Below, in pieces: positions 11,690-12,675 of a stretch of 64,000 bases of DNA. Origin of the DNA: a virus. Location of the stretch: positions 85,877 to 149,876 of IMG/VR virus record IMGVR_UViG_3300027365_000009; one strand, 5' to 3'. Position 1 is the stretch's first letter. Each line of letters opens with the position of its first letter. Both the position numbers and the translations under genes were made by a program. Below the pieces are notes generated by a model. That model ran no database searches, was not told where the DNA came from, and saw only the letters and a program-made list of their open reading frames with translations.

Positions 11690-12091
11690 ATGTCAACTCG
11701 CACGTTACGTTCCCATATCGTCAATCCCGCTAACGATAAGATCACGATCAACGTCACCGACGAGCCCGGAGATGGTGGTGCCAACCATCGTTATGAGATT
11801 AGCGGTTTCAATATCGAATCCAACGCCTCAAAAGAAGACCATGACGGGAACCGAAATCAGGTGAACCTCCTGTTCCAAAATGGTCCGATTCCTGAAAAGG
11901 GTGTCAATGGTATCACCCATGAGGTGTTGCTCGCTATCTTGATTGACCGCCTCCAAGGGTTCCAGGACGGTCCCTTCCGCTGCCGTGAAAATGCCCTGGC
12001 CCTCACCAAACTGGAAGAGGCTCAGATGTGGTTGCAGAAGCGCACACGTGATCGGATGTCAAGAGGGGTCGAGGGGACCCATGAGCAGTAA
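11690..12091 (+). CDS. tad1: Tad1-like anti-defence sponge protein
   Basis: RBS AGGAGG. Motifs GDGGANHRY, FQNGP and DRLQGFQDGPFRCRENALALTKLEEAQMWLQKRTRDRMSRGVEGT match the recalled Tad1 consensus ([47 protein letters not shown].V.GT). Confidence 0.88.
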   Translation: MSTRTLRSHIVNPANDKITINVTDEPGDGGANHRYEISGFNIESNASKEDHDGNRNQVNLLFQNGPIPEKGVNGITHEVLLAILIDRLQGFQDGPFRCRENALALTKLEEAQMWLQKRTRDRMSRGVEGTHEQ

Positions 12092-12386
12092 CCCCGTTAG
12101 TGACCATGATATCAACGGGATGCCCATACGGCATCTCTATGTGCGGTATCTGATGGCCAGCTACTTGTACTATGTGTGTGATGAAGCCTCACCTTGGTCG
12201 GATTACGAATACGACCTCGCCTGCCGGCGTTTACACACTGAGTGGGAAAGCTTCGATCATCCCCATAAGTACCTATTACGTAATCCCGATAGTCTCTTAG
12301 CGGGGACAGGGTTTGATATCATCAACTACCCCAGCATTGTCCGGGTCTGTTCCTGGTCATGGAAAGAGGGTGAGTTCAACAGATAG
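12081..12386 (+). CDS. Stand-alone NAD-dependent ligase domain Ia-like (Nlig-Ia) protein
   Basis: ATG 12081 (RBS GAGGGG) overlaps the tad1 3' end. SYLYYVCDEASPWSDYEYDLACRRL matches the LigA Ia motif (Y-x-YY...P..SD-x-EYD-x-L). There is no adenylation domain. Confidence 0.75.
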   Translation: MSSNPVSDHDINGMPIRHLYVRYLMASYLYYVCDEASPWSDYEYDLACRRLHTEWESFDHPHKYLLRNPDSLLAGTGFDIINYPSIVRVCSWSWKEGEFNR

Positions 12387-12397
12387 GAGTAGCAACA

Positions 12398-12631
12398 ATG
12401 CGTTTTCAAACCGCGTATGTGTGGATGAAGCATGGTAAGCGGATGCGTGTGCCAGGCTTCAAGGGGTATTGGCGTTTCAATAAAGAAACCGAAACTATTG
12501 AGATTGTCACGAAAGACAATGTTGTCATGGATATCCGTGACACTAAAGACGTTGATTTCACGATGTCGTTCATTAACTCCGACGAATGGGAGTTCTACGA
12601 AGGACATAATGACCCGCGTCAGAACACATAA
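12398..12631 (+). CDS. tad2: Tad2-like (DUF2829-type) anti-defence sponge protein
   Basis: RBS AGGAG. It has the M-x-F-x-x-A-x-x-x-MK-x-G-K N-terminus and a SDEW C-terminal motif typical of the Tad2 fold. Confidence 0.7.
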   Translation: MRFQTAYVWMKHGKRMRVPGFKGYWRFNKETETIEIVTKDNVVMDIRDTKDVDFTMSFINSDEWEFYEGHNDPRQNT

Positions 12632-12636
12632 CTCCA

Positions 12637-12656
12637 AGGGCTCCTGCGGGAGCCCT
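12637..12656 (+). terminator. Hairpin closing the tad1-Nlig-tad2 unit
   Basis: AGGGCTCC-tgcg-GGAGCCCT flanked by ACATA and TATGCC. Confidence 0.65.
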
Positions 12657-12675
12657 ACTATGCCGTCCCACTGTA

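Follow-up and report, generated by a model that had tools for sequence, protein, structure and literature searches.

We analysed a cluster of three small genes, here called g1, g2 and g3, in a 64,000-nt stretch (the window, whose positions serve as coordinates throughout) of the virus record IMGVR_UViG_3300027365_000009. The gene structure, the family and fold assignments, the conservation of individual residues, the synteny with related phages, the recurrence of the genes and the selection acting on them were computed. By sequence, g1 is a Tad1 protein and g2 a predicted solo Nlig-Ia domain, the stand-alone form of domain Ia of NAD-dependent ligase, and g3 is modelled as a divergent Tad2-fold protein. 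The conserved unit is the pair formed by the Tad1 and Tad2-like genes, and the Nlig-Ia gene is a lineage-specific insertion into it. The genes and the signals around them, with the ribosome-binding sites as read from the sequence, are the following:

11690..12091, + strand: g1, from the ATG at 11690 to the TAA at 12091, 133 amino acids; Tad1
11678..11683, + strand: Shine-Dalgarno sequence AGGAGG of g1, 6 nt 5' of the ATG
12081..12386, + strand: g2, from the ATG at 12081 to the TAG at 12386, 101 amino acids; predicted solo Nlig-Ia domain
12071-12076, + strand: Shine-Dalgarno sequence GAGGGG of g2
12398..12631, + strand: g3, from the ATG at 12398 to the TAA at 12631, 77 amino acids; divergent protein of modelled Tad2 fold, 'W/F-x-G-Y-W' subfamily
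12386-12389, + strand: Shine-Dalgarno sequence GGAG of g3
12637..12656, + strand: GC-rich hairpin at the end of the operon, 8-bp stem and 4-nt loop, no U-tract, 5 nt past the g3 stop
12658..12666, + strand: CTATGCCGT motif directly 3' of the hairpin; TATGCCG follows the equivalent hairpin in the related loci L003, L004, and L092

The start of g2 lies within the end of g1, giving an overlap of 11 nt, and a gap of 11 nt separates g2 from g3. All three ribosome-binding sites are purine-rich and lie 4-8 nt 5' of their ATG; a second in-frame ATG of g2, at 12120, has a weaker one. The compact layout that an earlier note on this DNA had described, with three coupled genes, a ribosome-binding site for each and a closing hairpin at 12637-56, is thus what the sequence contains. 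The hairpin has a folding energy of -17.6 kcal/mol (z -2.78 relative to shuffled sequences) and was not called by the terminator scan because no U-tract lies behind it. Hairpins of other sequence occupy the equivalent place behind the g3 homologue in L003, L004, L092, L156, and L157. Four loci share the order of a hairpin followed by TATGCCG, 3' of the g3 homologue (window 12637-12666; L003:4247-4277; L004:4241-4270; L092:3143-3187), with hairpins that vary in sequence, and this arrangement may be a terminator-plus-promoter junction of the phage group, in which CTATGCCGT may serve the next unit as promoter or start element. Neither AATATAATGAC nor CTATGCCGT is enriched across the window, so we claim no promoter.

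In the 435 nt 5' of g1 (11255-11689) there is no gene on the + strand, and an 89-codon open reading frame (ORF) on the minus strand (11303-11572) has no Pfam match. A blastn search with the operon against 50,697 phage records gave no match. The defence-system profiles of PADLOC gave zero matches, as expected of anti-defence genes.

Family and fold of the three proteins

The best matches of g1 among solved Tad1 structures are CmTad1 (8kbb, E 3e-24) and CbTad1 (7uav/8kbg, E 2.3e-18), followed by phiKZ gp184 (8y6v chain I, E 1.1e-18). It scores 32 bits against PF24729 (cut-off 27) and is 57.6% identical, over 64% of the query, to the founding Tad1 of SBSphiJ7. In CbTad1, mutation of F82, N92, R109, or R113 abolishes binding of gcADPR and 2',3'-cGAMP, and R90 and T97 are required for cA3 binding (10.1101/2023.11.15.567273). 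The residues F91, N101, R118, and R122 of g1 correspond to the former, in the pocket for gcADPR and cyclic dinucleotides, and R99 and T106 correspond to the latter, in the cA3 site, which means that six out of six pocket residues are kept. Three of them (N101, R118, and R122) are invariant across the Tad1 alignment A4. We also observe that K107, E110, M113, W114, and K117 match K96, E99, M102, W103, and K106 of CmTad1, which belong to its cyclic-trinucleotide site and hexamer interface; Q98 of CmTad1 is replaced by E109, most of the hexamer-interface residues being kept otherwise. The sequence therefore bears out the Tad1-like call of the earlier note: g1 is by these criteria a genuine Tad1, and by its place in the genome the positional orthologue of phiKZ gp184/Tad1.

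phiKZ gp184 is a Tad1 that forms a non-essential minor capsid protein, with its N-terminus wedged into the capsid and its C-terminal part freed by the head protease and then injected (PMC11297242, PMC10449902, 10.1101/2025.11.23.690004, PMC13282480). It belongs to the same family as g1 and occupies the same genomic position (gp181-gp182-...-gp184-...-gp186-thymidylate kinase), and, as in the solved CbTad1 (7UAV/7UAW) and CmTad1 (8KBB) structures, its residues of the gcADPR/cyclic-dinucleotide pocket are conserved in g1. Nevertheless, alignment A4 shows that the capsid-anchoring N-terminal region of gp184, about 100 residues long, is missing from g1, and gp184 has E and N where g1 keeps the cA3 residues R99 and T106. 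The phiKZ genome also lacks the two extra genes that come after g1. Without the N-terminal region, g1 is more likely to be produced during infection, inside the host cell, than to be packaged and injected and, with its cA3 residues kept, it looks like a free, full-spectrum Tad1. Since it is orthologous to a Tad1 that has already been described, g1 is no new discovery.

A different form of the domain occurs in gp131 of Burkholderia phage FLC9 (L001:1874-2890, 338 amino acids), in which a cyclophilin-type peptidyl-prolyl isomerase (PF00160, E 2.5e-44) makes up the N-terminal part and a Tad1-like domain with 48.8% identity to g1 the C-terminal part. We know of no description of such a cyclophilin-Tad1 fusion. 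The neighbours of Tad1 in FLC9 and IC12 belong to no informative families.

For g3, as for g2, a single-sequence phmmer search against solved structures gave nothing meaningful, and the g3 assignment comes from its relatives and its model. An exhaustive HMMER search with g3 collected 226 relatives (the narrower alignment A2 found one IMG/VR locus). Among 48 short relatives, 29 touch PF11195 (Tad2/DUF2829) at E <= 1, the best at 3.2e-9, and when a profile built from the 48 homologues is compared with the PDB, the leading matches are exclusively Tad2 and AcrIIA7 chains, at E 0.004-0.06. The AlphaFold2 model of g3 has a mean predicted local distance difference test score (pLDDT) of 95, and its top Foldseek matches are all Tad2 (template-modelling score 0.65), in agreement with the fold that the earlier note had expected. 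With VIA-align, the ten best matches are Tad2 or AcrIIA7 entries (Z 7.6-8.7, root-mean-square deviation 1.7-2.1 A over 61-63 residues), including SPO1 Tad2 at Z 8.7 and 1.8 A over 62 residues, and the next match has a Z of 3.5. In its model, g3 thus has the Tad2 fold, with an N-terminal helix, an antiparallel sheet and a short C-terminal helix.

This fold is shared with the Tad2/DUF2829 family (PF11195; SPO1 Tad2, HgmTad2, MoTad2, AcrIIA7) over residues 1-68 of g3, together with the N-terminal helix motif, apparently the C-terminal D/E-W motif, the small size and the presence in phages. On the other hand, g3 is only 16-21% identical to these proteins, carries the loop F-K-G-Y-W in place of G-W-N-G and, being shorter (77 amino acids), lacks the cyclic-dinucleotide-binding insertion of HgmTad2. 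The contacts of SPO1 Tad2 with 3'cADPR are W25, N26, W73, and D79, equivalent to W21, N22, W87, and D93 in HgmTad2. In the hidden Markov model (HMM) alignment the C-terminal part of g3 is covered by a low-scoring segment alone, too weak to place the equivalents of W73 and D79 reliably. The consensus of the pocket loop in the g3 family is W-G-G-Y-W, as opposed to G-W-N-G in Tad2, and the positions that the family conserves (G23, Y24, W25, T55, and W64) map to the pocket-forming loop and helix of Tad2. Tad2 proteins have diversified in ligand (3'cADPR, His-ADPR, N7-cADPR, cGG or cGAMP, cUMP or cCMP), at times with different pockets, so that an altered pocket in g3 is compatible with an altered ligand. 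In the protein P0147 a g3-type domain is joined to a canonical Tad2-like domain, and in P0053 to RyR and Tad2-like domains. The P0147 fusion parallels the published fusions of one sponge to another (PMC12265669), in keeping with a sponge role for g3.

The product of g2 matches PF22745 (Nlig-Ia) over residues 22-81 with 34.5 bits (cut-off 27), and with 33.8 bits in a six-frame search, which upholds the Nlig-Ia call of the earlier note. Its AlphaFold2 model (pLDDT 87.5) contains four helices; Foldseek found no match to it at E <= 0.001, and the top eight matches with VIA are without exception LigA domain Ia, over residues about 5-78 and at 23-26% identity, with Z values of only 3.9-4.7. LigA domain Ia contacts the nicotinamide-mononucleotide (NMN) half of nicotinamide adenine dinucleotide (NAD+), and in E. 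coli LigA the NMN-contact residues of this domain are Y22, H23, D32, Y35, and D36. When aligned to M. tuberculosis LigA, g2 has Y30, Y31, D41, Y44, and D45 at the NAD+/NMN-contact positions. Y30, Y31, and D41 do not vary among 60 solo homologues, D45 hardly does, and position 44 is Tyr or Phe. The motifs H-x-H-K and A-G-T-G are also conserved in these homologues and seem, by eye, to resemble the HP...SPT..VG stretch of E. coli LigA. We therefore predict that g2 is a stand-alone NAD+/NMN-binding ligase domain Ia. The ligase catalytic modules PF01653 and PF01068 have no match in the 149.9-kb record, which is 51% complete. The composition of g2 is not anomalous (GC 0.50, GC at third codon positions 0.61), so a recent foreign origin cannot be argued from it, and a homodimer prediction (alignment A5, two copies) scored 0.01, which is evidence neither way.

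Solo Nlig-Ia proteins were reported in 81 phages and proposed to sense NAD+ or to shield it from NADase effectors (Iyer et al. 2022, Viruses 14:1977), and we found no later functional study of them in the literature. Like these proteins, of which ECBP2_0056 is an example (Iyer, Burroughs, Anantharaman, Aravind 2022), g2 is a stand-alone domain Ia with conserved NAD+-contact residues and no ligase catalytic module in its record. Nevertheless, the others are 30-49% identical to g2, save for a near-identical copy in contig L161, and they lie in replication modules beside DUF7178 or primase-helicase genes, whereas g2 lies inside a jumbo-phage Tad1/Tad2-like operon. We examined 80 IMG/VR loci with a solo Nlig-Ia gene, and in 30 of them a DUF7178 gene lies immediately 5' and ends within a few bases of its start (for example L025:2415-3008, PF23802 E 1e-41). 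This association is much stronger than that of Nlig-Ia in the window. The neighbours of Nlig-Ia in SM1 and MAR10 belong to no informative families.

Genomic setting and sister loci

The window belongs to a 149.9-kb IMG/VR record judged 51% complete, whose tail sheath is 54% identical to the sheaths of PhiPA3- and phiKZ-like Pseudomonas jumbo phages. The genes around the operon have homologues in phiKZ:

1462..8922, + strand: homologue of phiKZ gp181, giant tail-associated lysin, 2486 amino acids (phmmer against the C-terminal part of gp181, E 1.6e-56)
8977..10995, + strand: homologue of phiKZ gp182, virion structural protein, 672 amino acids (phmmer E 3.4e-224; phrog_3181 E 2e-219)
13674..14087, + strand: homologue of phiKZ gp186 (phmmer E 1.9e-9)
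14108..14860, + strand: thymidylate kinase, homologue of phiKZ gp188 (phmmer E 4.3e-22; phrog_761)

The gene order is colinear with gp181-gp182-gp183-gp184-...-gp186-gp188 of phiKZ, and g1 occupies the position of gp184. Given this kinship, the premise that the phage forms a nucleus is plausible; chimallin (phiKZ gp54) has no match in the record, at its 51% completeness. Elsewhere in the window, the large subunit of ribonucleotide reductase (57654-60581, - strand, 975 amino acids) carries an HNH-endonuclease-like insert at about residues 399-543, and thymidylate synthase (19596-21140, + strand, 514 amino acids) matches its family in two separated stretches, which suggests inteins or other insertions in both.

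A g3 homologue lies directly 3' of Tad1 in L003, L156, and L157, three jumbo-phage contigs with syntenic gene order, in which the gp181 and gp182 homologues precede the pair and thymidylate kinase comes after it. L004, where the gene context differs, and L161 show this pairing too. The presence of a g3 homologue behind Tad1 in at least five related contigs suggests that g3, with its modelled Tad2 fold, is probably a second sponge, and we regard it as a candidate for this role. The closest IMG/VR relative, L092, has a Tad1 83% identical to g1 and a remnant of g3 truncated at its 5' end (L092:2896-3130), in which about the last 50 codons survive, with unrelated, stop-containing sequence in place of the N-terminal 27. 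L092 is also the only one of 62 IMG/VR Tad1 loci with a clear g3-family neighbour. Three further loci (L005, L154, and L155) have a g3 homologue with no Tad1 beside it; in L005 the g3 homologue is followed, after about 450 nt, by a NADAR-domain gene (L005:3699-4190, PF08719, E 3e-27), a member of a family that processes ADP-ribose.

The full triad recurs only in the metagenome contig L161 (2.8 kb, 93-96% nucleotide identity), where the gene order is the same, the 11-nt overlap is kept, and the proteins are 92% (Tad1), 94% (Nlig-Ia), and 91% (g3) identical. There, a 150-codon ORF with the Walker A motif GFPGIGKT lies between the Nlig-Ia and g3 genes (L161:1500-1952), with no Pfam or PDB match. 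The earlier note had called for a survey of neighbourhoods for the triad: beyond L161, with its inserted fourth gene, the seven sister loci lack Nlig-Ia. The ratios of non-synonymous to synonymous substitution between the window and L161 are 0.15 for g1, 0.10 for g2, and 0.11 for g3, as expected of real genes that purifying selection maintains in each of the three cases. The interval between Tad1 and g3 is evidently a slot for accessory genes that come and go.

Proposed function and its alternatives

We consider it somewhat probable that a phiKZ-like jumbo phage has here added two accessory genes to its gp184/Tad1 locus. The three genes would then be read as one transcript ending at the hairpin. 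By analogy with CbTad1 and CmTad1, g1 would be a functional, hexameric Tad1, in which six pockets at the dimer interfaces sequester the Thoeris signal gcADPR and some cyclic dinucleotides, and two pockets at the trimer interfaces take cyclic trinucleotides (cA3, cAAG); it would be made in the infected cell rather than packaged and injected. The g3 protein, which travels with Tad1 in this phage clade, would most likely form a second, homo-oligomeric sponge for a nucleotide signal outside the range of Tad1. As for g2, inserted between g1 and g3 in one lineage, the likeliest role would be one tied to NAD+, in that it could sense NAD+ or protect it locally, or help the host NAD-dependent ligase, while NADase effectors are active. 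Sequestering signals is probably not its role.

Several observations weigh against this reading, beginning with the operon itself: the promoter and terminator scan found neither a sigma-70-like promoter 5' of g1 nor a canonical terminator and, as no promoter was identified, we infer co-transcription from gene spacing alone. The others concern the two accessory genes and are also the main points in favour of their alternatives. We regard it as quite possible, though short of probable, that g2 has nothing to do with defence and is a replication-linked accessory, for instance a modulator of the host NAD-dependent ligase, that landed by chance in a variable slot by Tad1; its position may be accidental. 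The 80 solo Nlig-Ia loci lie in replication modules, where the neighbour is a DUF7178 gene or one for a T7-like primase-helicase, a DNA polymerase of family A (PolA) or a C5 methyltransferase, and none has Tad1 or a g3-family gene within 3 kb. Conversely, Nlig-Ia is present in 0 of the 7 sister loci and 0 of the 62 IMG/VR Tad1 loci. The plasticity of the slot, which holds the extra P-loop ORF in L161, a truncated g3 in L092, and the unrelated gp185 in phiKZ, points the same way, as does the lack of a ligase catalytic module in the 150-kb record, although a ligase may lie elsewhere in a genome of which 51% is present. What speaks for a connection to Tad1 is the 11-nt overlap with the Tad1 stop, kept in L161 under purifying selection, which indicates that expression of g2 is coupled to that of Tad1. 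Moreover, the TIR and SIR2 enzymes behind the signals that Tad1 takes up use NAD+ as their substrate, making a functional link between g2 and Tad1 plausible. The stronger proposal that g2 is a third sponge, for an NAD-derived immune signal, and that the operon is a dedicated multi-sponge cassette, seems improbable to us. Being small, with a predicted conserved ligand site, and sandwiched by and translationally coupled to two sponge-family genes, g2 would fit such a role, and association with known sponges has revealed new ones (PMC12265669). However, gcADPR, His-ADPR, and N7-cADPR lack the NMN half that domain Ia contacts, which, together with the replication-module context found elsewhere, makes a signal sponge less likely; no association with a sponge gene was seen at any other locus examined, and the sister loci do without Nlig-Ia. 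Of the dedicated multi-sponge cassette that the earlier note had put forward, the Tad1 and a Tad2-fold partner that is probably a sponge thus stand, and the sponge role of g2 is unsupported.

The assignment of g3 is the other place where a different explanation has to be weighed, namely that the Tad2 fold has been reused for something other than a sponge, for instance an inhibitor that acts by binding a protein, or a regulatory domain connected with lysis. On its own, g3 gives no Pfam match even at E <= 1, and PF11195 has no match in its own record, so that the Tad2-like call of the earlier note stands on fold and family profile and falls short of the Pfam threshold. Furthermore, the HMM alignment places F21 and K22 of g3 at W25 and N26 of SPO1 Tad2; the change of Trp to Phe is conservative, but N26 is replaced by Lys, and with this contact lost the ligand of g3 cannot be inferred. 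In P0064 and P0100, a g3-type domain is N-terminal to PG_binding_1 and N-acetylmuramidase domains in endolysin-like proteins, a context ill-suited to a sponge, and the homologues in L005, L154, and L155 have no Tad1 beside them. We still think a non-sponge function unlikely, given that the conserved G23, Y24, W25, T55, and W64 fall in the pocket loop and helix, that the Tad2 family has shifted its ligand several times (3'cADPR, His-ADPR, N7-cADPR, cGG, cUMP), and that the pairing with Tad1 is repeated. Least probable of all is that g1 serves mainly as a structural minor capsid protein like gp184, rather than as a free cytoplasmic sponge. It does occupy the gp184 position, directly behind late virion genes, and gp184 is located at the inner capsid surface (PMC11297242). 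Against this, g1 lacks the N-terminal part of about 100 residues reported as wedged into the phiKZ capsid, matches free Tad1 proteins better (E 3e-24) than it matches gp184 (E 1e-18), and still has the cA3 residues, which are missing from gp184.

A gp184/Tad1 locus with two accessory genes may be compared with the fused and clustered sponges Tad2-Acb4 and Tad2-Sequestin (PMC12265669), in which two unrelated sponge families likewise share one expression unit, presumably covering several signals. The published cases are fusions, whereas the genes here are separate and translationally coupled, and here Tad1 is paired with a Tad2-like protein, with a predicted NAD-binding domain between them. The three-gene arrangement itself had been taken by the earlier note to be undescribed, and this is consistent with the literature that we searched. 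What is already known at this locus is the Tad1 at the phiKZ gp184 position; the roles of g2 and g3 are candidates.

It would be a long shot that g2 is a new kind of anti-defence protein working with Tad1 and the Tad2-like protein. If so, g2 would sequester an NAD-derived or NMN-containing signal, or it would hold NAD+/NMN. In the latter case, phage replication through the host NAD-dependent ligase would survive depletion by Thoeris-, SIR2- or TIR-type effectors. With such a g2, the operon would act on NADase-based abortive infection at two levels, the signal and the consequences of the effector.

This locus is the first genomic context that ties a solo Nlig-Ia domain to counter-defence against nucleotide signalling, a tie seen in one lineage. 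Judging by our survey, the majority of solo Nlig-Ia genes are part of replication modules, which should be useful to anyone planning to test them. According to a 2026 review (PMC13282480), no anti-defence protein other than Tad1 had yet been described in jumbo phages. The phiKZ-like clade keeps a divergent gene of modelled Tad2 fold directly behind Tad1, which suggests a second anti-defence candidate in these phages, possibly a branch of Tad2 with a new ligand.

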